A stretch of DNA of 46,361 nucleotides from Terriglobales bacterium. Its GTDB lineage: Bacteria > Acidobacteriota > Terriglobia > Terriglobales > Acidobacteriaceae. Position numbers and translations under genes: made by a program. The stretch covers positions 1 to 46,361 of the forward strand of contig DATCCF010000088.1 of the NCBI GenBank assembly GCA_036511435.1, given 5' to 3'. The first letter of the stretch is position 1; every line of letters begins with the position of its first letter. This document shows positions 30,145 to 45,356 of this stretch, in pieces. The notes beneath the pieces are model-generated. The model was not told the origin of the DNA and searched no databases. It saw nothing but the letters and a program-made list of their open reading frames with translations.

Positions 30145-30150
30145 CTCGCC

Positions 30151-31548
30151 TTGGAGGGCGCTCTGCCGAGAGAGATACGGCTCTGTGAATGGTCGCGGGC
30201 AGATCACGGACTGAGCGCCGACGTGTGCCGCGACATCGATGCGGCTGCAGAGGCTTGGCGTATCCTCAACGGTTTGTCCGTCTCGCCGCTCTCCTTTGCT
30301 GGGCCGGATGGCCAACAGCTTTGTGCCCGGCAATACGTGGGTGTAATCGAGGTGGACGAGGTTGCGCTTGAAATCTACCCAAAGCTCGATGCTGCTTTGA
30401 TCGAGGTCAGCGAAAGACAGCCATTATCGTCTGCCACGACGATTGATTCGGTGATGCGCAATCTCTTGTGGATGCTGGAGGTCGCTGATCATCGCGATCT
30501 CGCCGAGACCGCAACTGCGCACCTTGAGGAGGCGCCTACCTCATTTTTCGATCTGTTCGCCTACTTGCTCGGGAAGAACCTTTTGCCTGAACTGGAGCGG
30601 GGCGTCGCCCATGCCTATGTAAAATTCACAGACGATCTCAAGGCCGTACGTGGGCGGATCGACCTCGTCGAACAGGTGACCAGAAACTGGAACCGGCTCG
30701 ACCGGGTGTTGTGCGCCTGGGATGAATTCACGTTGGACACCGCGATTAATCGCCTTTTCAAGTGCGCCTGCCGATTCCTATCCGAACGGGTGAACTATTT
30801 GGAGGCATCACGTCTGCTTCTGGATTGCCAGGCACTAATGGGCGAGGTCGAAGATGTTTCTCCCGCCACCGCGCTGTCGGGCGTTTGGAATTTGCGGTTT
30901 GACCGGTCTATGGAGCGGTTCAGAACAGCTTTCGATCTTGCCCGACGGCTACTAGCAGGGATCGGGCACAACCTCGGTGTGGGCAGTGCCAATACATTTG
31001 TTTTCCTGTTAGACATGAACCAAGTTTTCGAGAACTACGTGCACGCTGTGCTGGAATCGCACTTCAACACTGCCGTAGAAGAGCAAAAATACGTCGGTAA
31101 ACTCCTCGAAGTCCGCGCGGGAGGGATTTCTCAGCTGGCAGACTACTACTGGCGGCACGAAACAACCATTTGGATCGGCGATGCCAAATACAAACACCTG
31201 GCAAAGGGCCTGCAACGTGCGCTGCGTTTTAGTGACTTGGAAGGCGAACAGAACGGGGTGGACGAGGCAGCTCCTCTGGCAGGTCATGTCCTGAGCCCAG
31301 CGGACGTCCGACAGCTTACCGTCTATGCCGAGCTAGTCCGGCGGCGGGAACGAATGGCAACGACTCCAGACCTGATGTTGCTTTATCCGTTTGTCGGTCC
31401 TCCCGCCGAATGCATCCCAGACAGAGTCGCTGCATGGAATGGATCCACGTTTTGGCTCATGCCGGTCCTCGTGCGAGCTCAGGACTTCGTCGGTACCGCA
31501 ATTCGATTTCCCGTCTTCGAAGCCCCAGCAATCGACCCTGTCCCGTAG
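30151..31548 (+). CDS. mcrC: McrC-like nuclease subunit
   Basis: Starts (TTG) 7 nt after mcrB. C-terminal PD-(D/E)xK-like IWIGDAKYKHL, typical of McrC. Confidence 0.8.
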   Translation: MEGALPREIRLCEWSRADHGLSADVCRDIDAAAEAWRILNGLSVSPLSFAGPDGQQLCARQYVGVIEVDEVALEIYPKLDAALIEVSERQPLSSATTIDSVMRNLLWMLEVADHRDLAETATAHLEEAPTSFFDLFAYLLGKNLLPELERGVAHAYVKFTDDLKAVRGRIDLVEQVTRNWNRLDRVLCAWDEFTLDTAINRLFKCACRFLSERVNYLEASRLLLDCQALMGEVEDVSPATALSGVWNLRFDRSMERFRTAFDLARRLLAGIGHNLGVGSANTFVFLLDMNQVFENYVHAVLESHFNTAVEEQKYVGKLLEVRAGGISQLADYYWRHETTIWIGDAKYKHLAKGLQRALRFSDLEGEQNGVDEAAPLAGHVLSPADVRQLTVYAELVRRRERMATTPDLMLLYPFVGPPAECIPDRVAAWNGSTFWLMPVLVRAQDFVGTAIRFPVFEAPAIDPVP

Positions 31549-31742: not shown

Positions 31743-32354
31743 CTAAGATTCCGTTACGCAAACTGCCTTAATCCCAAACCGTTCGACTATCTTCACCACC
31801 TCATCGCCGGGTAGAGATCTTGCCGATGTCTGGTCCGACCATTGTGTACCGCTTTTGAGCGGCTTCAGCGGCGCTAAACTCGTTGAGGCTACCTCGCGGG
31901 CAACGGCCTCGATCGCCGGCCAATGCTGCAGAACCAACTCCGCTGCTCGCTGCTGCAGGAGTTCATGCACCTCGGGAACGGTCCTCTTGCCCAGGTACTG
32001 CCTTGAAAGATTGGTTTCTATTCCGCGCGCCTCTTTCGAGTCCGGGCTCAAAGTAACTTCGAGGTCGTCGGGCAATGGGCAAGAATAGCCATGCTCCTCG
32101 CAGAATCGCTTCTGCGCTAAATACCCGGCAACGGTGGCAACGATAATGGACTCTTTCGACTCGTCGGACTCGTCCGGTTCCTTGTAGAAGCAGGCAAGGC
32201 CCCACGCACCCTTATCGACCATTATTCCTTCCGGGCGCAACCGCAATCCCATTGCTGCCGCTATCACAATGTGTCCGGCTTCATGATGGGCTGCAATGGT
32301 CAACCTCGTGTCCAAATTGTCGGTTTTAGCCGCAACTTGCTCGCCACGTTCCAT
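31743..32354 (-). CDS. stand-alone HEAGH zinc-metallopeptidase (FtsH/M41-like catalytic domain)
   Basis: TIAAHHEAGHIVIAAAMG resembles the M41 HEAGH motif. 203 aa, with no AAA+ or TM part. Starts 45 nt after the reconstructed HNH stop. Confidence 0.6.
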   Translation of the reverse strand: MERGEQVAAKTDNLDTRLTIAAHHEAGHIVIAAAMGLRLRPEGIMVDKGAWGLACFYKEPDESDESKESIIVATVAGYLAQKRFCEEHGYSCPLPDDLEVTLSPDSKEARGIETNLSRQYLGKRTVPEVHELLQQRAAELVLQHWPAIEAVAREVASTSLAPLKPLKSGTQWSDQTSARSLPGDEVVKIVERFGIKAVCVTES

Positions 32355-32399
32355 GTCCCCATGATAATGCCCGCCACAATGCGGTTCACTGAGCGGTCA

Positions 32400-32508
32400 T
32401 CAATCTCCCGGTCTGCTCGATCCCTTTTCGGAGTTGCACCACCAATGCACGGCTTGGATGTTTTCCGAATGGTCATCTCGCCAGGCTCCTCCCATTCCTT
32501 TCGGGTGT
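32400..32508 (-). pseudogene. 3' fragment of the HNH endonuclease gene split by the Tn7-like insertion
   Basis: After removing 32514-44339 and one CTGTG copy, this reads in frame as RHPKGMGGAWRDDHSENIQAVHWWCNSEKGSSRPGD, with the stop (TGA) at 32400-32402. Confidence 0.8.
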
Positions 32509-32513
32509 CTGTG

Positions 32514-32563
32514 TGTGATTTAAACCATAAAGTTGCCGTTTGGCAGCGTTATGCTTTAAATGG
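32514..32563. repeat. Tn7-like left end: terminal site followed by an inverted copy
   Basis: TTTAAACCATAAAGTTGCCG (32519-32538), then tt, then TGGCAGCGTTATGCTTTAAA (32541-32560). The arms are complementary at 16/20. Confidence 0.7.
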
Positions 32564-32715
32564 TGCCGATGTGCTGGGCCAGCCCGCGACGGCGCCATTG
32601 CACACGACTGAGATTCGGAGCTGCATCGCGCGGGCGCCAGCAACGCGGAGATCGCGCGTCGGCTCCCTACCGGCCGCATCTCGGTGCGTCGTATCATTAA
32701 GGAAAGGATTCGCTG

Positions 32716-33096
32716 ATGAGCCATTCGTCGATGGAATTTCACAAGATCTGGATCGAACAATGCGCGGCCACCGAAGACATCCGTGAGCAGTTCGGGGCGA
32801 AAAACGCGTTGGACTATCTGATCGGGGAGAAGCTTTTTACGTTCGTGATGGCATCGGAGCAGGACTCCGAGTTCGCTGCGCAGTTGCCGGCATTCGTCGC
32901 CGCTATTCAGGGGCTGTTTTCCGCCGAGGAGATTCGTGCCTATCTCGACCATCTGGAGAGCGCGAAGTTTCTGGCTTCGCCTGAGGCGGAGATCGAGGAC
33001 GAGGACGAAGAAGAACCTTGGCCGGCAAATCCCGTGCTGGGCGCAGCGGAGCTGTTGCGTTTTTCGCGCATCCGCCAGCTGCTACAGTCTTGCTGA
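32716..33096 (+). CDS. acidic hypothetical protein (transposon cargo)
   Basis: 126-aa ORF with an EIEDEDEEE tract. No family recognised. Confidence 0.45.
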   Translation: MSHSSMEFHKIWIEQCAATEDIREQFGAKNALDYLIGEKLFTFVMASEQDSEFAAQLPAFVAAIQGLFSAEEIRAYLDHLESAKFLASPEAEIEDEDEEEPWPANPVLGAAELLRFSRIRQLLQSC

Positions 33097-33486
33097 CGGT
33101 CCGCGACAAAAAAGCCGTGGCCAAACCCAAGCGAGACCGCCTCCGCGAGGAACGAATCCACAACGAAGTCATCGTCGACGCCTATGGGCCGGAAGAGCAA
33201 GCTCTGGGCTGGTATTACTTCCTGGAAGATAAGCTACGATTCCCTTTCCCCGCCCGCTGCATCTCGGCCAAGGTGGTGTCGCCGCTCCGCAAGGGAGAAA
33301 CCGTCGAGGTCCTCCGCATGGCGCCCGAAAGATGCGTGTGCCGGCGACATGCTGGTGTTGATTCGCTGGCAGGGACGCAATGTCGCAGTTCCTCTGTCCC
33401 AACTAGTTGCCATTGACGCGGATGAATCTACCCTCGAGGCCATCGGCGACTGGCACTACTGGCTGGCGCAGGGCTACTGTTTCTGA
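33090..33486 (+). pseudogene. frameshifted conserved small protein (family often annotated 'calcium-binding', from memory)
   Basis: Frame 0 gives ...IVDAYGPEEQALGWYYFLEDKLRFPFPARCISAKVVSPLRKGETVEVLRMAPE. The +1 frame continues DACAGDMLVLIRWQGRNVAVPLSQLVAIDADESTLEAIGDWHYWLAQGYCF. The shift is near 33328-33335. The start (TTG 33090) is uncertain. Confidence 0.5.
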
Positions 33487-33539
33487 GTCAGGCAGCCCCG
33501 TTGAGAGTTACGCATGCGGGCTGGATATCGAAGACGCGT

Positions 33540-34094
33540 ATGGCAAAACGTCAGTCGAAATCGCAAACCACGTGGGCTGATGTCAAAGCCAAGCTCGCCG
33601 CTTTTGACCGGGGGGCCTTGCTGGACTTGATTCACCATCTCTATGCCGCGCACAAAGATAACCAGGCCTTCCTTCATGCCCGCTTTGGCTTGGGCGAGGA
33701 TGTGCTCGAACCCTATAAGAAGACCATCGATCGCTGGCTTTGGCCCGACGTGTTTCGGAACCAGGACACATCCGTCTCCCAGGCGAAACGGGCCATTGCC
33801 GATTACAGAAAGGCGGTGGGTGACCCCGCGGGACTCGCCGAGTTGATGGTTTTCTACTGCGAGCAGGCCGCTGGGTTCTGTCGGGATATCGGCTATCAAG
33901 AGGAAGAATATTTCGACGCCTTGGTTCGCATGTTTGAACAAGCCATCAGATCGACCAACACGCTATCCGCTACCGGCCGCGACGGCTTGATCGCGCGCTT
34001 AGACCGTGTGCGGGAAATCAGTCATTCGTTTGGCTACGGCGTCGAAGATGACATGGATTTCCTTCTCGCGAAGTACACCAGGCGTTCCGGCTGA
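33540..34094 (+). CDS. hypothetical protein (transposon cargo)
   Basis: ATG at 33540 (MAKRQSKSQ...). Helical-looking 184-aa product. Its 3' end overlaps the convergent tniQ ORF by 96 nt. Confidence 0.5.
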   Translation: MAKRQSKSQTTWADVKAKLAAFDRGALLDLIHHLYAAHKDNQAFLHARFGLGEDVLEPYKKTIDRWLWPDVFRNQDTSVSQAKRAIADYRKAVGDPAGLAELMVFYCEQAAGFCRDIGYQEEEYFDALVRMFEQAIRSTNTLSATGRDGLIARLDRVREISHSFGYGVEDDMDFLLAKYTRRSG

Positions 34095-36092
34095 TAAGCT
34101 AGCGAGTTCATCGATTACCCTTGGCGGGGAGAACCCAGTGCAGTTGTGCGGGCCTGTCGCAAGCACATTGCGCGCTTCACGAACCGCCGAGGAAATGGTC
34201 TTCCAGTCGCAGCGAGATCTTTCGGGAAGCCGCTCAACGACTCTTTCTACTGACGGGTACATGCCCCTACTTTGAAGTTCAACGGCAATGGCATGGATGT
34301 CGTGAAACAACCGTTCACGTCGGTGCGCTGTCTTAGCCGAGACGAACCGCCGGTGCTGCTCGATGATCATTCGCGCCCCAGCCGGGAAGTGCTTGTTCAT
34401 GAACGGTACCGTAACATCGAGTCGCCTGCAGACGGCTCGCAAAGATGGCGCCGGAGTTTCCCGGAGCGCCGCCATCGCTTCCTTCTCCAGACCAGATCTG
34501 CGCTTCGCAATGTAGAACCTGTATTGCGCCATGAGTTGATCGCATAGAGTGGGTTCATGCCTGCGTAGAATGGCTGAGTGCGAATAGCCGACACGGTGGC
34601 TCAAATCCGTGAGGGTCGGCGGTGGATGTTTGTGGAGCGCGTTTCTTAAGGTCCGGCGCAGACTTTGGAGACGATCTTGTTTCGCCTGTACGATCTTCTT
34701 GCCGATGGCTGCACATAGCTCTGGGAATTTTTGTTGAATATAGCCACTGTTTGGATGTTCAAGGCGTACAGCAATCTGATGAACTGAGGTTGGTTCGGTC
34801 GAGCTGAGAGACTGCTCTAAGATTTCCTTCAGTAGAGTCTCACACACTCTGGGCGCTCCAGGTTTCTTCCACCAATGACGCCCGCCCGACTGTCGATATC
34901 GGGCAGTGATTTTGTAGCAGATCGCTCGGTCGACTTCATAAAGGCTGTACGTGGTTGTGTAGCCCAGTCTGCGCGCAATCTCTGTGACGCTGAGCGGCAC
35001 GGCATCATCAAATGCTGCCAGAAGAGCTCGCCGAATTTCGAATGCATGCCGGGATGGGGACACAGAGCGCTTTCCTCTGATGGCAACCGCTTGCTTTGCG
35101 GCGGCTATGTTCGTGGGCGTCGGTCCCAACGGAGCATAGAAGCTAGAAATCGGAACATTCAAGTATCGAGCGATTCGCAGCAGGTTTTCGAGTCGAGGGA
35201 GTGCTGCACCAGCCAGCCAACTGTGCAGCATAGAATGGGGACACCGAACGTACTCTGCGAGGGCGAGGACATTGCCGCCTGCAACCTCTTCGAGATACAC
35301 GATGAGGCTTCGGCGAAGTGATTCCCGGGCAGCCACCGGGTCGACCCGGGGAAGCATCGCCAGCAGCCCTCCTACTTGGGTACAAGACCACGTTTGGTCT
35401 TCTCCGCTGGTCGAGCTAGGTTGTGACTGGTCACTGTCGGCATATGGCGCGCCCAACCAACCGCCACAGCGCTCGCAGAATCCCGGCTGGGAGAAAACGC
35501 CGAGTAGATTTAGCGCCCGCCCACAGCAAGGACAAGTGTGACTGAGCGGCCGCTGGTGTACCGGGCAATGGGATGACACTTTGATTGCCCAGAGAAGCGG
35601 CTCATAGACGGTTTGCCCGTTCAGCCGCCATTGTTCGAAACAGGGCGCGCACCAGGTCCGGTGCCGATGAAACAAATGATCAGGCAGCGCGTAGCGGAAC
35701 GGAAGGAGAGTGAGACACCGCAGGTCACGCCGGCTCGTCGCCACTTCCAGAGCGTGGACCCACTTTTTGGCACGGTCTGTAACGCCGTTAACCGTATAGC
35801 CACAAACTCGAAATCCATGTCCGCCGCGTCCGCCAGCTTTGGCCACCGGCGGGATGATCGCGCCTTGGGCATTCGGAACCTCTGAGAGCACCCGGCCTAC
35901 AAGGTCTCCAACGCTTACCGAGTGCGCTTCGGCAAGCCGGGCAACGTAGCCGCTCAGGCTCTCGACCAATGCGGTACCGATGCCAATCGGCTCAAGCGAA
36001 TAGAGCCGGCTTCTCGGCGGAATCGGCGAGCTTGAGAGTGACCACGAATCAAAGAGCGGCTGCACTTGCATCCATTTGTCCAATGACGTCAC
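33999..36092 (-). CDS. tniQ: TniQ/TnsD-family target-selection protein (697 aa)
   Basis: N-terminal TniQ pattern (PPRSRLYSLEPIGIGTALVESLSGYVARLAEAHSVSVGDLV) and a Cys cluster (CPVHQRPLSHTCPCCGRAL). Long C-terminal region with repeated HTH-like segments. The 3' end is uncertain because of the convergent overlap. Confidence 0.8.
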   Translation of the reverse strand: MTSLDKWMQVQPLFDSWSLSSSPIPPRSRLYSLEPIGIGTALVESLSGYVARLAEAHSVSVGDLVGRVLSEVPNAQGAIIPPVAKAGGRGGHGFRVCGYTVNGVTDRAKKWVHALEVATSRRDLRCLTLLPFRYALPDHLFHRHRTWCAPCFEQWRLNGQTVYEPLLWAIKVSSHCPVHQRPLSHTCPCCGRALNLLGVFSQPGFCERCGGWLGAPYADSDQSQPSSTSGEDQTWSCTQVGGLLAMLPRVDPVAARESLRRSLIVYLEEVAGGNVLALAEYVRCPHSMLHSWLAGAALPRLENLLRIARYLNVPISSFYAPLGPTPTNIAAAKQAVAIRGKRSVSPSRHAFEIRRALLAAFDDAVPLSVTEIARRLGYTTTYSLYEVDRAICYKITARYRQSGGRHWWKKPGAPRVCETLLKEILEQSLSSTEPTSVHQIAVRLEHPNSGYIQQKFPELCAAIGKKIVQAKQDRLQSLRRTLRNALHKHPPPTLTDLSHRVGYSHSAILRRHEPTLCDQLMAQYRFYIAKRRSGLEKEAMAALRETPAPSLRAVCRRLDVTVPFMNKHFPAGARMIIEQHRRFVSAKTAHRRERLFHDIHAIAVELQSRGMYPSVERVVERLPERSRCDWKTISSAVREARNVLATGPHNCTGFSPPRVIDELASLSAGTPGVLREKEIHVIFDAVAKRMTDFPHTV

Positions 36093-37200
36093 GCGTCGGA
36101 AGCCGCTGGCCCGGTCGCCGGCGCTTGACCGGAGGGGCTGGCCGTGTCGGATCTACTTCTGTTGTCGCGTGAGTGCTCAAACCCAGTCTCCCGCGAAGCC
36201 GCGCTACTGCCTCGCTGCGCTCGTTCAGCTTGAGTTCGCCATCTGTAGTCTCCGCGTACAGTTGCTCGCATTGAGCTACGCACAAGGCTTGAGATTCAAG
36301 ATCGGCTCTCGTCAACCGGCGGCCACCCTTTCGAGACGCGACGGTAGCAGCCCGCATCAGCCATTCCTTCAAAATGCCGACGCAACCAAGGCTCCGCTCG
36401 TACAGGAACTCCCAGTCGCTTACAAGGTCTGACTGATCCTCAAAAGCAAGTTCCTTCTCGAAGGACTGCACGACATTGATGAAGGTTTGGCGGTCTCCCG
36501 AATCTTCGGCACGGTAACGAGCGAGGTGAACGTCGACGCTTCGTCTGCTGAGTTGCCCATTCAGATTTCGGAACGCGAGCAGGTCGTAGGTCCCGAACAA
36601 AACGTGTACGGTCTTGGTCTGATTGGCGATGGACTTGACTACATCCAATTGATCGAGCAGGCGGCGGCCTGATGAAATCTTGCCGAGGTGCTGGGCTTCA
36701 TCGATCATGACCGCGACGGGCCGGCGATAGCGGATAGCCTGCTCCACGGCGTATCGGTATTCGGTACCGACCGCTCTGAATGTGGGCATGAAGCGCATGC
36801 TGGGTTCGACGAAGGCCCGCTCCACCTGTCGATTCAGCTTACGGTCGATCAGCGGCTCGTCAAGTTGGTGGAGGAGACGTTTGTAGTGATCGCGCCAGTT
36901 GAAACTCCCGGACTCAGGAGCTACGGCTTCGACACTAACCACCGGGACCCGCGTGATGTCTTCATGGAGTTCGCTCAAGAGCTCCGCAGTAATCAACTGC
37001 TCCGTTTTCAACCGTAACGTCGTCTTACCGACCCCGGTCGGTCCAAACACAAAAATGAGCGAATTCGGCTCGGCCCCCCGTATTGCATTTATCAGTGTCT
37101 CTTTGGCTTCCACGAGCCGAGGATGCGCCACCGTGAAGGAACGAAAGCGGTCAAGTCGCAACTCAGTACCATCCGGTTCCCGATTGTGGTTAGCCGCCAT
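36049..37200 (-). CDS. tniB: TniB/TnsC-family AAA+ ATPase
   Basis: Walker A IFVFGPTGVGKTT and Walker B VAVMIDEAQHL. The start overlaps the tnsAB stop by 1 nt, and the end overlaps tniQ by 44 nt. Confidence 0.85.
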   Translation of the reverse strand: MAANHNREPDGTELRLDRFRSFTVAHPRLVEAKETLINAIRGAEPNSLIFVFGPTGVGKTTLRLKTEQLITAELLSELHEDITRVPVVSVEAVAPESGSFNWRDHYKRLLHQLDEPLIDRKLNRQVERAFVEPSMRFMPTFRAVGTEYRYAVEQAIRYRRPVAVMIDEAQHLGKISSGRRLLDQLDVVKSIANQTKTVHVLFGTYDLLAFRNLNGQLSRRSVDVHLARYRAEDSGDRQTFINVVQSFEKELAFEDQSDLVSDWEFLYERSLGCVGILKEWLMRAATVASRKGGRRLTRADLESQALCVAQCEQLYAETTDGELKLNERSEAVARLRGRLGLSTHATTEVDPTRPAPPVKRRRPGQRLPTRDVIGQMDASAAAL

Positions 37201-39734
37201 CAGAAGTCTCCGTAGACCGCGCTGGCCTCAGCTTGACCGGGTACTGATATCGGCGGCGTAGCGTTCCCAGACTGTGATTCCTTGAAGGCCTCTCGACTGG
37301 AGGCTGCGTCTGGAACAACAGCGGGGCCGTTCTGGCGGATCGACTTGCTTTCCCGATCACGCAATCGCTGTAGGAGACACTTCTCTTCCGCTTCGGCTGA
37401 TCCAAGAAAATCTGCCAGTTTCCGAGCCGTCAGAGTGAATCGCTCCCGAGAGTGCAACTGGCTTCGTCGGCGTACCTCCTTGGACGCCAACATTATTTCT
37501 TTCTCCGAACGGCCCCGCAGCGCCGCATAGTGCTCAGAGTGGCCCTCCGTCCATCGGTTCTTCACAAACGCGTAAGCTTTGCCGATATCAAAAGGATCGT
37601 ACCGGACGGCGACGTCGTGATTTTCAACCGTGGGATCGCGGAATGCCTCGGCCCAGTAGTACACGCCGTTGACGATGACCCCACGCCCAGGTGACACTCT
37701 CGCAGTGCCCCGTTGAGTTGTTGGAAGGGTAGCCATTAAGAACGCTTGATCGTAGGGAATCAATCTATTCGGGCGAACGCCGGTGCTTTCCAGGCTCTTG
37801 AAATACGCCTCTCGCGGGGTTTGCCCGAGAGCGGGGTGCTCGATGGTATCGTAGATCTGGAACAGGAAAGACGACAGATAGTCATAAAGATGAACGAGGG
37901 TCCAAGCCGCCTGTCCCACAGGGTCGTTGCTCTTTGTGACCTGTCGGACGTTGCGCATGATCTGAGTGTTGCCCCGCAGGCTGTGAATAAACTGAGTGTT
38001 TGTGGTGCCGAAAAGCCGCTCGCAGACGGAGCCGAACCTCGCCTTTGCCGGCGGCCGCGTCTTCTTGGTGCATTCATAGCGGGCCAGGAGCGTTTCGAAA
38101 TATGTGCTCTGGAATTCGGGGCCACCGTCAATGACGATAATCTGCGGCAGGCGGCCATGGCGCCGGACACAATCCCGCAGAATCATCATGCAGGACCTGT
38201 AGCTCGGAGCGTCGAATGTCAGATAGAGCGCAAGGCAACGCCGTGAGAAGGCATCCGTGAGAATCGTCATCCACGGCCGCCCGAGTGGACGGCCGGTGTG
38301 GGAGCAGACGACTTCAACGTCCAACTCGGTATGATCGATGTGCCCGATCTCGAAGGGACGGTCTCCATGGCGCGGCGTAGTCGGTTCCAACTCGAAATAG
38401 AAGAATGCATGGGTGTACGCGGCGCGTCGCCCCCGCCGCTTTAACGTTTGTTCGAAGGTCGCACGCTCGCGCACGGCAACACAGAACGTGACGTAGCTCG
38501 GCGCTTCGATGCCACGCTCGTCGCATTTGCGCTTCAGCGCTGCCCACGACGCGATCTTTGTCTTTTGCCTGAGATTCTCGTAATCGTTCTCGATAAACTG
38601 AATGAGCAGGTCGCGCGACTCCTCGGACAAGCGGCTGGTTCTGTTTCCTCGCTTACTGGTCTTCCCCAGCAAACCCACATACCCGTTGCCGTACTGCTCT
38701 TTCGCGAGCCTATACTGCGCCGCCCACAGGCGCAGCGTCCTCGCCGGGATAGAATGCGGAGCTTTTTCCCCTCCAAGATGAAGTTTCACAAGATCGAAGC
38801 GCCGGTTCGCGGCGACCAAGTCCTGCTCGCTGGCCGTTGCCAGGAGATGGAAGGCCTCGCTATGCGCAACTGGCGCTTGAGCAGACGGGCCGCCGATGCG
38901 TCCGCAGTTCGCCACACGCTCCTTCAACTCATGACAAGCTAGCTGGTATGCAGTAGCAACTTCTGCGTTGACAAAGACGCGAACCTGGTCTGGCTCGACG
39001 ATCGCGGCTGCGCTAAGGTCCACGTAGACGCCGCCGCTTGCGATCAGTAGGTAAATCTCGTCAGGTTCCGCAACGCCGCGGACCTTTTCCAACAGCTCCT
39101 GCAGAAGTATTCCTGGTTCTGCTTCGATTGCCGTTTTGATGGCGGCGTCGATAAAGCCTGTCGCACCCGCAGAGTCGAATCGCAGATAGTCGTCCAGGAA
39201 CTGGAGGTTCCGCTGGAGAATCCAATTAACCTCCGCCGATGACCATACTCGGTAGTCCAAGCCCAGTGCCGAGGCGTGCACTTCTCCCGGCGGGCAGCGC
39301 CAGTCGCCGTAATTATCTCGAAGGTAGCGGTGTGGACTCTTGATGGCCAGCTTTTCGAGATCCTCCGAGCTTTTGCACTCTACCCATCCCGCAGAGTCGC
39401 GGCGAAGCACAAAATAGTCTGGGGTATGCAGAATCGACAAGCGTCTGCCGTTTGCCGCGTGATAGATGAGCGGAATAGAGGGCGGCTGGTCGTAATACTC
39501 CAGTACTCCGGGATCGTGCTCCATTTCGTATACGAAGGGCAGTTCAACTCGGTGGCTTTCGAACTGGATGGTGATGCCCATTTTGCGGCTGGGATACCGA
39601 CCGGAGACGTTTTGGCGACCGCCTCCAACGCGACGAGTAGGATTACGGGACCGGACCGCAGTGATCGTCGCACGTGTTGTCTCGGTCAACCCGAGCCGTG
39701 CACACCAGCCAAGAAAGTCCGCCTCGTTGAGCAC
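37200..39734 (-). CDS. tnsAB: TnsA-like endonuclease fused to a TnsB/TniA DDE transposase (844 aa)
   Basis: N-terminus: FESHRVELPFVYEMEHDPGVLEYYDQP...LHTPDYFVLRRDSAGWVECKSSEDL, a TnsA-type E...D...K pattern. Middle and C-terminus: HIDHTELDV, VIDGGPEFQS (rve-type DDE) and a Mu-transposase-like C-terminal part. GTG start. Confidence 0.85.
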   Translation of the reverse strand: MLNEADFLGWCARLGLTETTRATITAVRSRNPTRRVGGGRQNVSGRYPSRKMGITIQFESHRVELPFVYEMEHDPGVLEYYDQPPSIPLIYHAANGRRLSILHTPDYFVLRRDSAGWVECKSSEDLEKLAIKSPHRYLRDNYGDWRCPPGEVHASALGLDYRVWSSAEVNWILQRNLQFLDDYLRFDSAGATGFIDAAIKTAIEAEPGILLQELLEKVRGVAEPDEIYLLIASGGVYVDLSAAAIVEPDQVRVFVNAEVATAYQLACHELKERVANCGRIGGPSAQAPVAHSEAFHLLATASEQDLVAANRRFDLVKLHLGGEKAPHSIPARTLRLWAAQYRLAKEQYGNGYVGLLGKTSKRGNRTSRLSEESRDLLIQFIENDYENLRQKTKIASWAALKRKCDERGIEAPSYVTFCVAVRERATFEQTLKRRGRRAAYTHAFFYFELEPTTPRHGDRPFEIGHIDHTELDVEVVCSHTGRPLGRPWMTILTDAFSRRCLALYLTFDAPSYRSCMMILRDCVRRHGRLPQIIVIDGGPEFQSTYFETLLARYECTKKTRPPAKARFGSVCERLFGTTNTQFIHSLRGNTQIMRNVRQVTKSNDPVGQAAWTLVHLYDYLSSFLFQIYDTIEHPALGQTPREAYFKSLESTGVRPNRLIPYDQAFLMATLPTTQRGTARVSPGRGVIVNGVYYWAEAFRDPTVENHDVAVRYDPFDIGKAYAFVKNRWTEGHSEHYAALRGRSEKEIMLASKEVRRRSQLHSRERFTLTARKLADFLGSAEAEEKCLLQRLRDRESKSIRQNGPAVVPDAASSREAFKESQSGNATPPISVPGQAEASAVYGDF

Positions 39735-39771
39735 TTGCCCTCCGCAGCCGGAACGGCAGAGACGCCGCTGG

Positions 39772-40107
39772 CTACTTTCGGATGTGCGAACTGCGCTCGT
39801 TCTTTAGCGCCAACGTGTACCTTCGCCCGGCTTCAGCCATAAGCTTCTGAAGATCGCGGCCGTTCCGGATGGCCCTTTCCAAATCCTCGGCCAACTCGTC
39901 AGGCACATAGATCGAAAACCGGCGATTCCCCTTGCGGCCATACAACGAATAACTGGAGTGTCCCTGCCCTGCTTCGCATAGCTGACAGCGCTTTCGAATA
40001 CAGGGGCTCTTCCGCAAGGACAGAGACCCGATGGCCACAGGCCAGAGATCGCGAACTGCCCTCTGAAACCAGAGTCTGACCTGTTCCGGGGTTTCTGTTC
40101 GAGTCAT
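39772..40107 (-). CDS. small Cys-containing protein (DUF6788-like, from memory) upstream of tnsAB
   Basis: ATG at 40107; GSLSLRKSPCIRKRCQLCEAGQGHSSYSLYGRKGNRRFSIYVPDELAEDLERAI. 37-nt gap to tnsAB. Confidence 0.5.
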   Translation of the reverse strand: MTRTETPEQVRLWFQRAVRDLWPVAIGSLSLRKSPCIRKRCQLCEAGQGHSSYSLYGRKGNRRFSIYVPDELAEDLERAIRNGRDLQKLMAEAGRRYTLALKNERSSHIRK

Positions 40108-40118
40108 TGTATAGGTGC

Positions 40119-40147
40119 ATACTAGCACACATACATTGTCGATACAA
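40119..40147 (-). promoter_or_regulatory. putative sigma70-type promoter of the small-gene/tns operon
   Basis: On the minus strand: TTGTAT (40147-40142), 17 nt, TAGTAT (40124-40119), 11 nt before the ATG at 40107. Lies in the only AT-rich patch of the region. Confidence 0.3.
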
Positions 40148-40179
40148 GACAAAAACTACAAGCAACTGAAGGCCCGGGT

Positions 40180-42636
40180 CTACAGGTGTGCCGGGGGATG
40201 GGGTGGAAACGTCTCCTGCTCGATCACATAACCAATCGCGGCATAGCCCTTCAGCCTGCGCTCGTACATTCTGGCCAGCATTGGAACGTAGTTGTCCACA
40301 TAATCGTAGACCTGCACGAATCGTTTGTTGTCGTGAAGACGATGCAACCGCCCCACATACTGCTGCAACGTGCCCTTCCAGGAGATCGGCATGGCCAGGA
40401 ATAGCGTGTCCAGACGCGCGTCGTCAAACCCTTCTCCGATGTAACTTCCCGTCGCCAGAATCACCCGCGCTTCGTTTTCCGGCACTGATGCCAGGGCCGC
40501 CGCTGTTGCTCGACGCTGCTTCTTCCCCATGCCGCCCTTCAAGACGAAGACGTGCTTGGCAACACCCTCAAGTTTGGCTGCGAAATGCTGGAGATGCTCT
40601 GTCCGACCGGTCAGAAGCAGCGGGCAACGTCCAGATTCTATGGCGCGCACGATGTCGTTGGCGATCATCTCGTTGCGCGAGACATCATCGACGAGCGCGG
40701 CGTAGATGTCCTGGATCGTGACCTCGGTGAGTTCGGACGCCATCCGGAACTCCGTATGGCGGGGAGTCACCTTGTGCTCAAAGGGTGTCGTTTCGGTCAT
40801 CGTCCGGGCGCTCATGCTGAACCGTACGGGGCCACACTGCATGTAAATGATCGGATGGTGCCCGTCCTTCCGCGTCGGCGTGGCGGTCAGACCGACAACA
40901 TACTTGGCCTTTACCTGCCTCATGACCTGTTCGAACGTGAAAGCGGATATGTGGTGGCATTCATCGACGATCACCTGGCCGTACTCAGCAACGAAGTCCT
41001 TCACTTCGTCTTTTCGGTACAGGCTTTGGATGACGGCGACATCCACGTAACCCGTCCGGTCCATTTTGCCGCCACCGATATGTCCGATCGATTTGGCTGG
41101 CAGATCCAAGAACATCCCAAGGCGCTCCTGCCACTGATCGAGCAACTGCTGCCGGTGAACGACTACCAGAGTGTTGACCTTGCGTTTCGCGATCAGCCAC
41201 GCCGCAACGGCGGTCTTTCCGAACGCTGTCGGCGCGCAGAGGATACCTTCGTCGTGTGCGGTGATCTTCGTGACGGCTTCCTCCTGGAACGGCCGAAGCT
41301 GACCCTGGAACTCCGCTTCAATCGCTGAGCCTGAGTACCGTTCGTCCCGAACTTCGGGCCGGATCTTGTGCGCCTCGAGAAGAGCCAACGTCTCAGTCAG
41401 GCAGCCACGAGGCACAGCAATGTGATGGGCGAATTCCTGGCCGCATGCGATCACACGCGGTTTGTCGAACGTCGAGAGCCGCATCGCCTGAGCCTTGTAG
41501 AACTCCGGGTTCTGAAATGCGGCCAGCCGGAGTAACCGATTTAGCATGGCTGGTGGGAGATCCTTCTTTTCCACGTAAACAAGATTCGCGCGAACGACCT
41601 GAACAGTCTTTGGTAGCGGCCCTTCGATCGGCCGCTCCCTCCGCTTGCCAGAATGTGGCAAGGTCCACGGGTCTCGTGCATCGTCGTCATCGGCGATGCT
41701 AATCCGGACTCCGATCAGGTCGCCTTTGCGCTGAGCTTCCGCAACGATCTCCTCGGCGGCGTCGGCCGGCATTCGTCGAATTGTCGAAAGAAACTGCCAT
41801 TGGTCGGGGTACGGTTGGAAGTCTGAGTCAATGAACACACTGTTGCCCAACTTGCGTGGCGCAAACTGCAAGGGGAGCGCAATCAGATTCCCGAGCCCTC
41901 CCTTGGGCATCGTGTCCTGGTTGGGGAAAAAGCGATCATAGGAATCGAGACCGAGCTGATGCCTGCGCTCCATGGTGCGCGTGAGAATCAGGCATCCCAG
42001 TTTGCGCGCGGTAATCGCTGACAGCGCACGATCAAAGAAGATCCAAATGTGGCCGCCGTTCCCGGAGCGAGAACGCTCCAAGGCAGCTGGCACACTCAAC
42101 TCCTGGCAGGTCTCAAGGAAAGCCTGGGCGTCATACTCCCAAGTCTTCTTGTCGAAGTCTGCCGCGAGAAACCAGCACGTTTCGTCGGACAGGAGGGGAT
42201 ATACGCCAACGGCTTCCTTGCCCAAGAGGTGGTTCTCGATGACGGCGTCGGTCACCGGGAGGAACTTCCTTGTCTTCTGGTCGACTTTCTTCCGCTCCTC
42301 CGGGCGGCTTTTGTTAATGGCCTTCCAGTCCTTTACGGCCGCCGGCACATATCCCGATCGGCCGTCGTCATTCTTCCATCGCTGTGCGTAGACATCTTCT
42401 CTCCCGCGAAACAGGCTTCGAAACAGCGCGATTCTTTTTCTGGCACGCTCCTCCTTGTCCACCGGTGGCGCCGTCTCGACGGTTTTGGTTGGAGGCCGAT
42501 TCTCTGGCGCAAGTTGCGGAATCGGAATGCTGTGAACCGCCAGGAGCCGCCGCAGGCGAGCGTTTTCCTCCCGGAGGCGAATATTTTCCTGCTCTGGAGG
42601 CTCGAATGGAAGAGATTCCGAAACCTTCTCGGTCAT
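40180..42636 (-). CDS. AEP (PrimPol)-like primase-polymerase domain fused to an SF2 DEAD/DEAH-type helicase (818 aa)
   Basis: AEP motifs: FLAADFDKK (DxD), ERSRSGNGGHIWIFF (sGxGxH), SYDRFFPNQD...GGLGNLIALPL. Helicase motifs: CAPTAFGKT, VIVDECHHISA, GLTATP, QYVGRLHR. Starts 7 nt after abiEii. Confidence 0.8.
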   Translation of the reverse strand: MTEKVSESLPFEPPEQENIRLREENARLRRLLAVHSIPIPQLAPENRPPTKTVETAPPVDKEERARKRIALFRSLFRGREDVYAQRWKNDDGRSGYVPAAVKDWKAINKSRPEERKKVDQKTRKFLPVTDAVIENHLLGKEAVGVYPLLSDETCWFLAADFDKKTWEYDAQAFLETCQELSVPAALERSRSGNGGHIWIFFDRALSAITARKLGCLILTRTMERRHQLGLDSYDRFFPNQDTMPKGGLGNLIALPLQFAPRKLGNSVFIDSDFQPYPDQWQFLSTIRRMPADAAEEIVAEAQRKGDLIGVRISIADDDDARDPWTLPHSGKRRERPIEGPLPKTVQVVRANLVYVEKKDLPPAMLNRLLRLAAFQNPEFYKAQAMRLSTFDKPRVIACGQEFAHHIAVPRGCLTETLALLEAHKIRPEVRDERYSGSAIEAEFQGQLRPFQEEAVTKITAHDEGILCAPTAFGKTAVAAWLIAKRKVNTLVVVHRQQLLDQWQERLGMFLDLPAKSIGHIGGGKMDRTGYVDVAVIQSLYRKDEVKDFVAEYGQVIVDECHHISAFTFEQVMRQVKAKYVVGLTATPTRKDGHHPIIYMQCGPVRFSMSARTMTETTPFEHKVTPRHTEFRMASELTEVTIQDIYAALVDDVSRNEMIANDIVRAIESGRCPLLLTGRTEHLQHFAAKLEGVAKHVFVLKGGMGKKQRRATAAALASVPENEARVILATGSYIGEGFDDARLDTLFLAMPISWKGTLQQYVGRLHRLHDNKRFVQVYDYVDNYVPMLARMYERRLKGYAAIGYVIEQETFPPHPPAHL

Positions 42637-42643
42637 ACCGCGT

Positions 42644-43528
42644 TCACCGCTCCGTGCGACGTGTCAGCACTTCTTGGAGATACTCCTGTACGCCCGCAAA
42701 CACCGCGGCGATATCAGTTGGGAGCCCGCATTCTTCCACCAGGGCTTGAAACGGGATCTGCCAATCCGCTGGCGGCGGAACCAAACCCCCCGGCAAATCG
42801 TGTGTTCCTCTTCTCTCAAACGTCAGACGCAAGGCGTCCAGGATTCTCTGTTTATCCATGCCTCCTGATCTGATCAGGAGAGCCAGGTCCACCAAGTCCT
42901 TCACTCTGCTGTTCGCAGCGTTCCGCGGGAGCGTGTAGGCATGAATCTTTTCAGCGAACTGCTGCTCGCGAGCGATCATCCGGACGCGCGCCGATTCGAT
43001 GCCAGCGAATCCCAGCCAGTCCCGGCAGATGATTGTTTCCAGCGGCTGCATAACCACGTCACCAATGCCGGCATCCAGGTGGAATCGGGCAAAGATCCGT
43101 TCGTCCATTCGAGCTTCGACAGGATAGCGAGCCCCGCCGCACGGCGCGGCGGTCAAATCGATGACAGGCGGTCCGATCGCGTACTCGAACCAGTCACCAA
43201 GAGGGATGTCAGCCACGCTCTGCAGCATCCCGCGTACAACCTGGTTCGTGTCACCACCCGCCGATGTTGCTGCCCCCACTCGCTGCAATGTCAGGTCGAT
43301 GTCCACCGTTGATCGAGCAGCCTTGAAGCGCAGCTCCAGCGCATAACCACCCTTCAAAACCCAGGGCGCTGGTTCTTCCCGGAACAGCCTTGCCAGCAGA
43401 CGGTCGAATGATACCTGTCGCCGGAGGCGGTTGAGATCGATCTGATCAGTAAGAGAGGCCCTCTTCAGGCGTTCTTCAAGAGCCCTTCGGAATGCTCCCG
43501 CCGTCGCATATGTCCTGGGTGACGGCAT
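42644..43528 (-). CDS. abiEii: AbiEii/AbiGii-family nucleotidyltransferase toxin (type IV TA)
   Basis: WVLKGGYALELRFKAARSTVDIDLTL... is typical of DUF1814/AbiEii. Overlaps the abiEi stop. Confidence 0.85.
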   Translation of the reverse strand: MPSPRTYATAGAFRRALEERLKRASLTDQIDLNRLRRQVSFDRLLARLFREEPAPWVLKGGYALELRFKAARSTVDIDLTLQRVGAATSAGGDTNQVVRGMLQSVADIPLGDWFEYAIGPPVIDLTAAPCGGARYPVEARMDERIFARFHLDAGIGDVVMQPLETIICRDWLGFAGIESARVRMIAREQQFAEKIHAYTLPRNAANSRVKDLVDLALLIRSGGMDKQRILDALRLTFERRGTHDLPGGLVPPPADWQIPFQALVEECGLPTDIAAVFAGVQEYLQEVLTRRTER

Positions 43529-44139
43529 TATGCAGCTCGCCGCAGCACTTCCTCTACGATTTTGCGCGCAGGTCCGCTCATTTGCGTGTTCCGAATCTGT
43601 TGGCGAGTGATCAGACCACGGTCGACAGCCTGCCTTAGCGCCTGGCGGATGAAGTTCCGCTCGACCGTGCCAGCCTCGATCAGGTCAAGAATCGTCCGCA
43701 GAGGGCGAGTAAACTTGAAGCCCTGCGCCGTCTGTACGTCGCTCTCGGACAGGTCGGCATAATGAAGTACGAGGATGCCGGGAATATCGCTGTTGCGCCG
43801 GAAATCTGTCGGAACGGTCATGTGGAGCTTCGCCGGATTCAGGTCTGACAGATCGTAGAGGCTGAGCGCCGTGTGGTGGCTGTACGCACCCTCGACTTCC
43901 TCGTTCCGGTTCCGGGACCACAGTGCCCAAAGGACTAGGTCGGGCCGATCAGCCGCCGGAAACAGAGCGAGCCGGTAGATACCCCGGTGCTCGCGGATCC
44001 AGTTCCCGACCTGCACATGATAGGGGTGCGTGTTTTCGGCGAATCCGGCCGCCTTAGCCTGCTTGGTAGTGAAGAAACCTTGCTGCTGCTCAGCAAACTC
44101 GAAGAGCTGCCGCGAGGCTTCACGGTGAGACTGGGCCAT
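43528..44139 (-). CDS. abiEi: AbiEi-family antitoxin / transcriptional regulator
   Basis: GFFTTKQAKAAGF...WIREHRGIYRL... and C-terminal TRPLRTILDL are AbiEi_4-like. First gene of the operon. Confidence 0.8.
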   Translation of the reverse strand: MAQSHREASRQLFEFAEQQQGFFTTKQAKAAGFAENTHPYHVQVGNWIREHRGIYRLALFPAADRPDLVLWALWSRNRNEEVEGAYSHHTALSLYDLSDLNPAKLHMTVPTDFRRNSDIPGILVLHYADLSESDVQTAQGFKFTRPLRTILDLIEAGTVERNFIRQALRQAVDRGLITRQQIRNTQMSGPARKIVEEVLRRAA

Positions 44140-44145
44140 AACACA

Positions 44146-44174
44146 ATACTACAACTTTCTTGACGCTAAATCAA
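44146..44174 (-). promoter_or_regulatory. putative sigma70-type promoter giving a near-leaderless abiEi transcript
   Basis: On the minus strand: TTGATT (44174-44169), 17 nt, TAGTAT (44151-44146), then 6 nt (TGTGTT), then the ATG at 44139. No Shine-Dalgarno sequence is possible in that space. Confidence 0.35.
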
Positions 44175-44214
44175 CAGCAGGTGATTGGGGAAGCCTACGG
44201 CCGCACTGCAATTC

Positions 44215-44339
44215 CGGCAAGGTTATGGTTTGAGAGCCTCCGCCGGCGACGGCGGCCTTCCAAGCGAAATCAACAACTTGAAGGAGATCATGCGGCAAGG
44301 TTATGGTTTAGGTTCGGCAAAGTTATGCTTTAAACCACA
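44215..44339. repeat. Tn7-like right end with three direct TnsB-type sites
   Basis: CGGCAAGGTTATGGTTT at 44215-44231 and 44293-44309; CGGCAAAGTTATGCTTT at 44315-44331, followed by the terminus AAACCACA, which ends at 44339. Confidence 0.8.
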
Positions 44340-44599
44340 CTGTGGTCCGGTACGATATCGCTGCAGTCGTCAAATTCACGGTGGCAAATGGCGCACTTCC
44401 CTGTCTGCTCCACGACTTTTCGGCTCAGCAACTTCCGCATCTCTGCTGGTGACCGGAGTTCCCGATATCCCCTTGGATGGTGCGGATCTTCGATGCGCTG
44501 AACACCAAGCTGAAATCTGCGTCCTTTCCGTACCTGCTCGCGACCGCAGCAGAAGAGCGATCTATGGATCGGACAATATTCATTCCGACGGAGTTTCAT
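44340..44599 (-). pseudogene. 5' fragment of the HNH endonuclease gene split by the Tn7-like insertion
   Basis: MKLRRNEYCPIH...GKCAICHREFDDCSDIVPDH, then the reading frame runs into the transposon end (SVV-stop). Confidence 0.8.
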
Positions 44600-44793
44600 G
44601 GGAATGCTCCAGTGTGACTTGCATTGGTATTCGTTTTGGCTTTTCAGGGATTGGACTACCGAGAGAGAGCAGGATGGACGCTATGCACCGGGCTCCGGTT
44701 TTACAAACTGGCGCCGGCTCTCACGTGTTCACTCATCCATCATTTTGCAGACGAGTTTGTGTTACAACCGGAACAGAAGTCCAAAGGATTGTC

Positions 44794-45051
44794 ATGTCTG
44801 GTTTACGGGATCGATTTGCTCAAGCTCAAGAAGACGTGAACGGCCTTGGCGAGCGCCCGGACAACAACACGATGCTGAAGCTGTACGCTCTTTACAAACA
44901 GGCGACTCAGGGCGATGCCACTGGGGAGCAGCCAGGGGGCTTCGACTTTGTCCGCCGCGCCAAGTTCGACGCCTGGAGCGAGATCAAAGGCACCTCCACC
45001 GAGGACGCCATGCAGCAGTACATCGACCTGGTTGCCTCCTTACGGCGCTGA
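44794..45051 (+). CDS. acyl-CoA-binding protein (ACBP)
   Basis: 85 aa; FAQAQEDVNGL..RPDNNTMLKLYALYKQATQGD...GGFDFVRRAKFDAWSEIKG.STEDAMQQYIDLV is a classic ACBP pattern. The longer ORF from 44185 is spurious upstream. Confidence 0.8.
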   Translation: MSGLRDRFAQAQEDVNGLGERPDNNTMLKLYALYKQATQGDATGEQPGGFDFVRRAKFDAWSEIKGTSTEDAMQQYIDLVASLRR

Positions 45052-45128: not shown

Positions 45129-45356
45129 CTATCCGTCCCTTCTCAAGCTGGTTAGCAGCCCCGAATACCGCCGTTGTGGACGGTCATTATGGACGGCGAT
45201 ACCGAGCGCCTTCCGCTGGCCAATCAGTACGAGCAGCCGCTTGCCCCGTGTGATCCCGGTGTAAACCAAGTTGCGTTGCAGCAGCATGTAGTGCTGCGTG
45301 GTTACTCGCACGCCATCTCGGACCAGGACATTGCGCTCGCCAATGACGGGACACAC
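45129..45356 (-). pseudogene. C-terminal remnant of a RecD2-like SF1 helicase
   Basis: HYMLLQRNLVYTGITRGKRLLVLIGQRKALGIAVHNDRPQRRYSGLLTSL matches the last ~50 aa of RecD-like helicases. No upstream helicase body is present. Confidence 0.55.

Follow-up and report, generated by a model that had tools for sequence, protein, structure and literature searches.

The whole 46,361-nucleotide (nt) contig DATCCF010000088.1 of a Terriglobales bacterium (assembly GCA_036511435.1), referred to here as the window, carries on its minus strand a cassette of three genes in which an AbiE toxin-antitoxin pair, abiEi and abiEii, is followed directly by a gene for an 818-amino-acid (aa) fusion of a primase-polymerase and a helicase (below, the primase-helicase or simply the helicase). 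We favour the reading that this is a composite cassette of two self-sufficient modules that share one operon and travel as cargo of a Tn7-like transposon, and we give this reading a probability of about 0.45. Every part of the cassette belongs to a known family, and we found no evidence for a categorically new system. Neither the ordered combination of AbiE with a PrimPol-helicase nor the placement of such a cassette at a Tn7-like element's right end was found in the literature searched, which also yielded no paper linking AbiEii with a primase-polymerase and no experimental study of the primase-helicase family.

The abiEi gene (43528-44139) encodes a predicted antitoxin and transcriptional regulator of 203 aa, abiEii (42644-43528) a predicted nucleotidyltransferase toxin of the DUF1814/MenT family of 294 aa, and the third gene (40180-42636) the primase-helicase. 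An earlier note on this DNA, made from the letters alone, had placed the genes at these coordinates, packed on one strand, with an overlap of 1 nt between abiEi and abiEii and a gap of 7 nt before the third gene. Open reading frames (ORFs) were found exactly there, all on the minus strand, and the two junctions read TAATG and TGA-acgcggt-ATG. The identity that the note proposed for the AbiE proteins is backed by profile matches in both Pfam and PADLOC: AbiEi matches PF13338 (E-value 6.1e-11, residues 10-58) and the PADLOC AbiEi profile PDLC02228 (3.5e-69, residues 7-188), and AbiEii matches PF08843 (2.6e-28) and the PADLOC AbiEii profile (1.1e-85). Single-sequence searches of the PDB with AbiEi or AbiEii returned no match, and it was only a profile built from 12 AbiEii homologues that succeeded, matching AbiGII (9hlo, 4e-40) and MenT3/Rv1045 (8e-14). 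The nucleotidyltransferase residues G60, D76 and D78 of AbiEii are invariant among the homologues aligned. At the sequence level, abiEi-abiEii is a canonical AbiE pair. AbiEi proteins are repressors, while AbiEii proteins are bacteriostatic, bind GTP and probably modify tRNA 3' ends, and AbiE systems stabilise plasmids (PMC13064643).

All of the motifs that the earlier note had quoted for the 818-aa protein are present, at residues 160-759. These are DFD at 160, SGNGGH at 191 and DSYDRFFPNQD at 231 for the AEP part, and GKT at 473, DECH at 558, TATP at 584 and QYVGRLHR at 759 for the helicase. The catalytic positions, including D160, D162, H196, GKT, DECH and motif VI, are invariant across 32 homologues of 35-52% identity. 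Pfam, phmmer and Foldseek all agree with the assignment to an AEP PrimPol fused with an SF2 helicase. Residues 68-295 (41752-42435) form the AEP (Prim-Pol) domain, which matches the Pfam family AEP-TOTE (PF22548) at 1.5e-94, with 316 bits against a cut-off of 27 bits, and the protein also matches ResIII (4.9e-25), DEAD and Helicase_C. An XPB-type N-terminal domain (approximately residues 340-440) precedes the XPB-like SF2 helicase core (approximately residues 446-800; 40237-41301), which was located with phmmer and Foldseek. The nearest sequence to the primase part is that of the Prim-Pol domain of CAPP (7nqd, phmmer 2.4e-15), and the nearest to the helicase part is that of the archaeal XPB protein XPBII (6p4f, phmmer 1.9e-21). 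An alignment-based AlphaFold model of the protein had a predicted local distance difference test score (pLDDT) of 86 and a predicted template modelling score (pTM) of 0.81. In Foldseek searches with this model, the N-terminal domain, for which the note had suggested structure prediction, matched CAPP Prim-Pol (target TM-score 0.76-0.83, root-mean-square deviation 3.1-3.8 Å) and the C-terminal ~490 residues matched XPB (6p4w, 3e-20).

The primase-helicase family, which is found on mobile elements and on chromosomes, is very large. It has at least 8,000 close relatives among 90% identity clusters and, at E<1e-30, 3,786 clusters when grouped at 50% identity; of the best 150, more than 100 are full-length fusions. 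About one third of the family is fused to a PLD or Vsr-like nuclease, with a C-terminal DUF559/Vsr-like domain in 24 of 80 GTDB members and a PLD domain in 59 of 150 representatives; the 818-aa protein itself has no fused nuclease domain. No full-length homologue was found in 50,697 phage records, 38 loci were found in 2.9 million IMG/VR contigs, and 98 plasmid records hold a full-length homologue. The "conflict system primase" label that the note had mentioned for such proteins in NCBI annotation does exist, as one homologue (P0069) bears such a name.

A candidate promoter was found ahead of abiEi. A 26-nt block, CAAGAAAGTTGTAGTATTGTGTTATG (44162-44137, minus strand), ends in the abiEi start codon and is unchanged in 10 cassette copies although the DNA further upstream is unrelated; no similar conserved block precedes abiEii or the helicase gene in the cassette copies compared. 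The candidate abiE promoter, TTGATT-17 nt-TAGTAT (44174-44146, minus strand), lies in the region that includes this block (44137-44174). As the invariant block ends in the abiEi start codon, the abiE mRNA would be nearly leaderless. In a generic scan for promoters and terminators no signal rose above background and this site was not flagged, so we propose its function as a promoter on the basis of conservation. Apart from the invariant block and the promoter-like site, the region shows no convincing long inverted repeat, and no Rfam RNA family was detected in 32000-45000.

To assess how often the three genes occur together, we surveyed 80 species-representative GTDB loci that encode the helicase, using an iterated profile search for AbiE. 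Of these, 64 have at least 2 kb of upstream sequence and are informative. ORFs in the surveyed loci were called with a simple longest-ORF heuristic, which makes the gaps and part of the neighbour assignments approximate. A co-oriented AbiEi-AbiEii pair lies directly upstream of the helicase in nine of the 64 loci (~14%; L006, L007, L014, L022, L023, L026, L059, L062 and L074). Looser arrangements were seen in L054 (AbiEii 505 nt upstream, with one ORF between) and L034 (the pair 4.4 kb upstream), and the pair is inverted relative to the helicase in L047 and L063. AbiE was never found downstream of the helicase in the 80 loci. Adjacent copies are always ordered abiEi-abiEii-helicase with gaps mostly of 7-21 nt, and a rough binomial estimate, in which nine of 13 nearby AbiEii genes occupy one of ~40 slot-and-orientation states, gives p ~1e-11. 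Among 550 neighbouring ORFs, AbiE ties with two other families, a CcbP-like family and a family of ~400 aa, as the commonest neighbour of the helicase.

Six copies (L007, L014, L085, L087, L088 and L096) match the window over 40190-44176 alone, i.e. over the three genes and 37 nt upstream, with 72-88% nucleotide identity. None of the six has an array of transposon-end repeats upstream of abiEi except L085, the contig of which ends inside the helicase gene. Within this clade the trio is inherited as a unit.

The reciprocal survey covered 80 metagenome loci encoding AbiEii with 35-96% identity, which were counted if at least 500 nt of downstream sequence was available. A helicase gene lies directly downstream in 11 of 13 loci with an AbiEii at least 60% identical to that of the window, in two of 18 at 44-60% identity and in two of 21 at 30-44% identity, so that four of the 39 AbiE pairs below 60% identity have a helicase (~90% unlinked). 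Eleven of the 15 helicase-linked AbiE loci in this sample belong to one Acidobacteria clade, and linked pairs also occur in the metagenome lineages L100, L109, L142 and L164. On a viral contig (L206, one of the 38 IMG/VR loci) AbiEii lies directly upstream of a helicase that is 34% identical to that of the window. Two of the 11 linked loci with at least 60% identity are decayed cassettes (L095, 2964-3392, and L092, 5103-5330), in which the helicase gene is lost after ~75 codons through a deletion in L095 and an integrase/IS91-like insertion in L092. In L117, a further decayed copy, a transposon-end repeat lies just past the end of detectable helicase homology (~1250). We also considered AbiE as a generic front end for varied effectors; this was rejected, as AbiE pairs without a helicase are followed by a convergent gene or an unrelated housekeeping gene.

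The linked genes have diverged together. We compared identity matrices of AbiEi, AbiEii and the helicase across 17 linked loci, and the matrices of all three genes correlate. For AbiEii and the helicase, r = 0.82 (p = 2e-4), falling to r = 0.44 (p = 0.03) when the large clade was pruned. At least five lineages keep the trio: the Acidobacteria clade, Verrucomicrobia (L022, L100 and L109), a gammaproteobacterial pair (L074 and L142), L059, and L026 together with L062. Two AbiE subfamilies with only 21-27% mutual identity occupy the same slot before the helicase. The helicases of L062 and L074 are 60% identical and their AbiE pairs, which belong to different subfamilies, are 26% identical. The slot has thus been filled more than once.

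The linkage is nevertheless facultative. Approximately 86% of the sampled helicase loci have no AbiE directly upstream, and helicases 89-91% identical to that of the window occur without AbiE in L002, L003 and L005, in which homology to the window begins 13 nt ahead of the helicase start codon. In a neighbour-joining tree of helicases, AbiE-linked loci are scattered, and these three AbiE-less loci are sister to the clade of the window. The gene-neighbourhood survey that the earlier note had put forward did not give the outcome that the note named as refuting, an absence of conserved linkage to AbiE pairs: the linkage recurs in several phyla and the linked genes co-diverge, but only ~14% of helicases are directly linked.

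Other genes accompany the helicase as well. A CcbP-like gene (PF11535) adjoins it in nine of the 80 loci, mostly immediately downstream (L002, L003, L005, L006, L008, L009, L011, L079 and L081), and a gene for a ~400-aa protein with no Pfam match adjoins it in nine of 80, often after the CcbP-like gene. These two genes may form a second partner set for the helicase. Helicase neighbourhoods are heterogeneous overall (445 clusters from 550 neighbours) and include other toxin-antitoxin genes (BrnT, HipA, VapBC and Fic).

Under the favoured reading of two modules in one operon, and by analogy with the AbiE and MenT systems that have been studied, AbiEi would repress the single conserved promoter and neutralise AbiEii, while the AbiEii nucleotidyltransferase would arrest growth, probably through modification of tRNA 3' ends. 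The pair would give abortive-infection-type protection and would make loss of the element costly (addiction). The primase-helicase would be a nucleic-acid-directed conflict effector, most likely aimed at invaders; ATP-driven tracking along, or opening of, foreign or replicating DNA, together with de novo priming or extension, could derail that DNA. Transcription from the AbiEi-controlled promoter would place the helicase under the same regulation as the toxin, and the two modules would act in parallel and not in one biochemical pathway. We infer promoter use, co-transcription, anti-invader function and parallel action. A conflict role for the helicase family is suggested by its nuclease fusions, its rarity in phage records, the Pfam and NCBI names and the precedent of DRT7 (discussed below).

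Several points weigh against this reading. The label of conflict effector derives from domain logic and naming, and as the copy in the window has no nuclease, it is hard to explain how priming and translocation would harm an invader. Strong ties of the family to mobile elements, after tniQ or beside trios of tyrosine recombinases, would also fit a role in element propagation. The co-divergence of the genes, like the presence of two AbiE subfamilies, hints at a tighter dependence than that of parallel arms. In addition, a weak terminator-like hairpin lies 3' of the helicase gene, the promoter scan had no significant match, and co-transcription is a step that we infer.

The earlier note had proposed that the three genes form a single system in which nucleic-acid synthesis or unwinding is coupled to the nucleotidyltransferase toxin. 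In such a true three-component defence, the primase-helicase and AbiEii would work in one pathway; for example, the primase-helicase would sense or process invader DNA, and its product or activity would release or feed AbiEii. Part of this found support, in that the trio is recurrent, ordered and co-diverging. At least five independent lineages show the same invariant order, and their gaps are mostly 7-21 nt; all three genes co-diverge, two AbiE subfamilies were recruited into the same slot, and the helicase is the sole recurrent third gene after these AbiE pairs. Eight of the nine directly linked helicases also lack a fused nuclease (a trend that is not statistically significant), which raises the possibility that AbiEii could be the missing effector. 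The part that found no support is a dedicated, obligate system of three genes. Helicases 89-91% identical to that of the window persist without AbiE, ~86% of helicase loci and ~90% of AbiE pairs below 60% identity (all but four of 39) are unlinked, and the other partner sets are equally common. In some copies (L006, L022 and L023) AbiEii is split by frameshifts yet the helicase is intact, and AbiEii is also split in L095. We therefore regard a three-component system as unlikely. Its integrated form, in which the helicase-primase activity or a short nucleic acid made by it would trigger or supply AbiEii, and in which the cassette was selected time and again and set in a favoured promoter-proximal slot of a Tn7-like transposon, seems to us, if anything, a little less probable.

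Also unlikely, in our judgement, is that the primase-helicase serves the element itself, through priming and unwinding for its replication or for gap repair in the course of transposition or excision or afterwards, or through help in target choice, with AbiE only as an addiction module that keeps the transposon in place. The cassette occupies a conserved slot in six related Tn7-like copies (the window, L001, L023, L004, L085 and L086), and elsewhere the helicase gene directly follows tniQ in TniA-TniB-TniQ transposons of alphaproteobacterial plasmids, namely Agrobacterium pAtA74a_b (L166), Sinorhizobium pMl1 (L169) and Sphingobium pTB1 (L171), overlapping tniQ by 4 nt in the last of these. Other helicases lie beside tyrosine-recombinase trios or integrases, 98 plasmid records have a full-length homologue, and plasmids and satellites are known to use PrimPol-helicase fusions as replication initiators (PMC5862659). 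On the other hand, the helicase is a monomeric XPB-type SF2 enzyme and not an SF3, SF4 or MCM helicase as in such replicases, an origin-binding domain is not evident, PLD or Vsr nucleases are present in one third of the family, and the host plasmids carry their own replicons. TnsA of the element in the window keeps its catalytic motifs, so cut-and-paste transposition with little DNA synthesis is expected. Detectable Tn7-family genes are near the helicase in only two of the 80 GTDB loci; a link to Tn7-family elements as a general property of the helicase family was therefore rejected for the GTDB sample, although it is real in alphaproteobacterial plasmids. The position after tniQ in these plasmid transposons is the place of tnsE in Tn7. 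In two Paracoccus replicons, pAMI8 (L165) and p1 of strain SCSIO 75233 (L170), the helicase gene lies beside three tandem tyrosine recombinases, an arrangement that resembles a recombinase-in-trio element.

That the adjacency is meaningless, with common defence-island or mobile genes hitch-hiking together and the linkage across the clade going back to one accidental fusion that a successful transposon spread, is very unlikely: the concentration of 11 of the 15 linked metagenome AbiE loci in one Acidobacteria clade, the very heterogeneous helicase neighbourhoods (445 clusters among 550 neighbours) and the BrnT, HipA, VapBC and Fic genes also found near helicases would fit, but the linkage is also found, independently, in Verrucomicrobia, Gammaproteobacteria and Zixibacteria and on a viral contig, with helicases that are as little as 34% identical, orientation and order are the same whenever the genes are adjacent and two AbiE subfamilies are involved, and co-divergence remained significant after the big clade was pruned.

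The Tn7-like element spans 32514-44339 (11.8 kb), has TGT ends and contains the cassette. The earlier note had placed the cassette between the right end and tnsAB, and the end repeats, termini, target-site duplication and a second copy of the element bear this out. The right end (44215-44339, minus strand) has three TnsB-type 17-nt repeats (44215-44231, 44293-44309 and 44315-44331) and the terminus TGTGG. The left end (32514-32557, plus strand) has the terminus TGTGA, one repeat in the expected orientation (32522-32538) and one inverted repeat (32541-32557). A pattern search for the 17-nt repeat gave four matches (the three at the right end and, inverted, 32522-32538) against 0.08 expected by chance. 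The terminal inverted repeats are TGTGATTTAAACCATAAAGTTGCCG, at 32514, and its partner TGTGGTTTAAAGCATAACTTTGCCG, ending at 44339. The repeats at the left end abut in opposite orientation, forming a near-palindrome, while those at the right end are direct. Read directly from the sequence, the element is flanked by a CTGTG target-site duplication (32509-32513 and 44340-44344), and removal of the element with one CTGTG restores an uninterrupted HNH-endonuclease-like ORF that contains CAICHREFDDCSDIVPDHRHPKGMGGAWRDDHSENIQAVHWWCNSEKG (flanks 32300-32513 and 44340-44620). The transposon thus splits a small HNH-endonuclease-like gene. In a 98.5% identical copy at another genomic site (L001), homology stops exactly at 44339. 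The flanks differ in the L001 and L023 copies, and insertion therefore does not look site-specific.

Read along the minus strand, the right end is followed by abiEi, abiEii, the helicase gene, a 126-aa ORF, tnsA-tnsB, tnsC and tniQ, and the left-end cargo comes last. A hidden inner transposon end between the helicase gene and tnsAB was considered and rejected, as no further end-type repeat was found there; the slot that the cassette fills is thus truly the one that separates the right end from the transposase genes. Related repeat arrays lie upstream of abiEi in L001, L023, L004, L085 and L086, which indicates that the right-end slot is conserved in this transposon lineage. The 126-aa ORF (39772-40152, minus strand) is cysteine-rich and zinc-ribbon-like, with a match to DUF6788 (8.6e-5) below the Pfam cut-off. 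Its homologues were found solely beside TnsAB homologues (L001, L004 twice, L006 and L023), so we rejected it as a fourth gene of the cassette, since it goes with tnsAB. In this transposon lineage it accompanies the tnsA-tnsB gene in every case, and it may serve the element as an additional core or regulatory gene.

The transposition genes all lie on the minus strand. The tnsA-tnsB fusion transposase (37200-39734, 844 aa) matches Tn7_TnsA-like_N, rve and Mu-transpos_C as well as the NCBIfam model TnsA_like, and has HTPDY and VECK motifs. It is followed by a tnsC/tniB-type AAA+ ATPase (36049-37200; AAA_22 at 1e-14, TniB at 2.4e-9) and a tniQ/tnsD-type target selector (33999-36092; TniQ at 1e-10, with helix-turn-helix domains). 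The left-end cargo (32716-34094, plus strand) comprises a 126-aa acidic ORF, a split CcbP-like gene and a 197-aa DUF6155-like ORF (33501-34094). PF11535 matches the CcbP-like gene (33018-33486) in two frames, consistent with a frameshift or decay. The CcbP-like and 197-aa genes are at the far left of this transposon, yet they lie directly upstream of the helicase in L002, L003 and L005 (8650-9830), an arrangement that would be expected if the ends of the transposon were joined and the ends and AbiE removed.

Approximately 1 kb to the left of the transposon, a 952-aa McrB-like AAA_5 ATPase and a 465-aa McrC-family protein are encoded at 27286-31548; the element has thus landed in a defence-rich region. 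To its right, judging by eye from the translations, there is an acyl-CoA-binding-protein-like ORF (44795-45051, plus strand) and a 75-aa ORF (45129-45356, minus strand) that resembles the C-terminal piece of a helicase of the RecD/TraA type.

The primase-helicase family is very large and carries the label of a conflict protein, and the cassette offers a testable entry point to it. With a length of 4 kb, a clear candidate promoter and AbiE as a well-understood partner, it is a practical construct for studying these enzymes. An interaction between the modules, if there is one, would point to a way in which toxins of the AbiE type are triggered, and if an integrated system were true, AbiE would gain the infection sensor that it has so far lacked. 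In some Tn7-like elements cargo is kept on the stretch from the right end to the transposase genes, and in other transposons members of this enzyme family ride directly behind tniQ. Such placements bear on the annotation of cargo and on whether these enzymes help the elements themselves.

Among known defence systems, the primase part has its Pfam family in common with TOTE. TOTE stands for TPR, OB, TBP and Effector (Aravind, Iyer and Burroughs 2022, by way of a quotation in bioRxiv 10.1101/2025.09.15.676423), and the AEP domain of the 818-aa protein belongs to the TOTE-named family PF22548, in agreement with the NCBI names of homologues. No Pfam match to a TPR-OB (S1/cold-shock) or TBP gene was found among the scanned ORFs of 32514-44339, nor was either present in the top families of 122 neighbour representatives or the recurrent clusters around 84 homologues. 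By the definition as quoted there, the cassette is therefore not a canonical TOTE system. The closest solved structures to the N-terminal domain are those of CAPP (7NQD, 7NQE and 7P9J; 25-26% identity), and the PADLOC profile for Cas-associated PrimPol matches at 1.7e-94. The match to the curated CAPP model NF040561 of NCBIfam is however 94.6 bits against a cut-off of 200 bits, the fusion partner here is an XPB-like helicase, and no cas family was found among the scanned genes of the transposon. The low score and the lack of cas genes in the transposon indicate that the 818-aa protein is not CAPP.

DRT7/UG10 provides a precedent for an AEP-superfamily primase domain in a defence protein, and a functional AEP primase domain is needed if DRT7 is to act against phages (bioRxiv 10.64898/2026.02.16.706125). 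The PADLOC match is weak (2.5e-4) and limited to the primase part, and the AEP subfamily of the 818-aa protein is different. A Pfam scan detected no reverse transcriptase domain in the protein, which is therefore not DRT7. Archaeal XPB-Bax1 and related helicase-nuclease defence proteins resemble the other half, as the C-terminal 480 residues match XPB in both sequence and fold and relatives of the 818-aa protein are fused to PLD or Vsr-like nucleases, whereas the protein itself has no nuclease and has an N-terminal primase-polymerase.

The transposon has the features of a Tn7-like element: a TnsB DDE transposase, TnsA, a TnsC ATPase and TniQ/TnsD. Each end bears repeats and a TGT terminus, and the target-site duplication is 5 bp long. 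AbiE has been reported as cargo of 19 Tn7-like elements, with no mention of a primase-helicase (Benler et al. 2021, PMC8649781); Acidobacteriota, the phylum of the host here, were barely sampled in that survey. Arrays of TnsB sites and defence-type cargo are shared with those elements, but here the cargo is enclosed by the right end and the transposase genes instead of lying beyond tniQ, and TnsA and TnsB are fused. With the AbiE and MenAT systems, the cassette shares an overlapping bicistron with the antitoxin gene first, an AbiEi with a winged helix-turn-helix-type domain and a DUF1814 nucleotidyltransferase with the G and DxD motifs. AbiE as described consists of two genes, whereas here a third gene, for the 818-aa protein, begins 7 nt downstream and is co-inherited with them.

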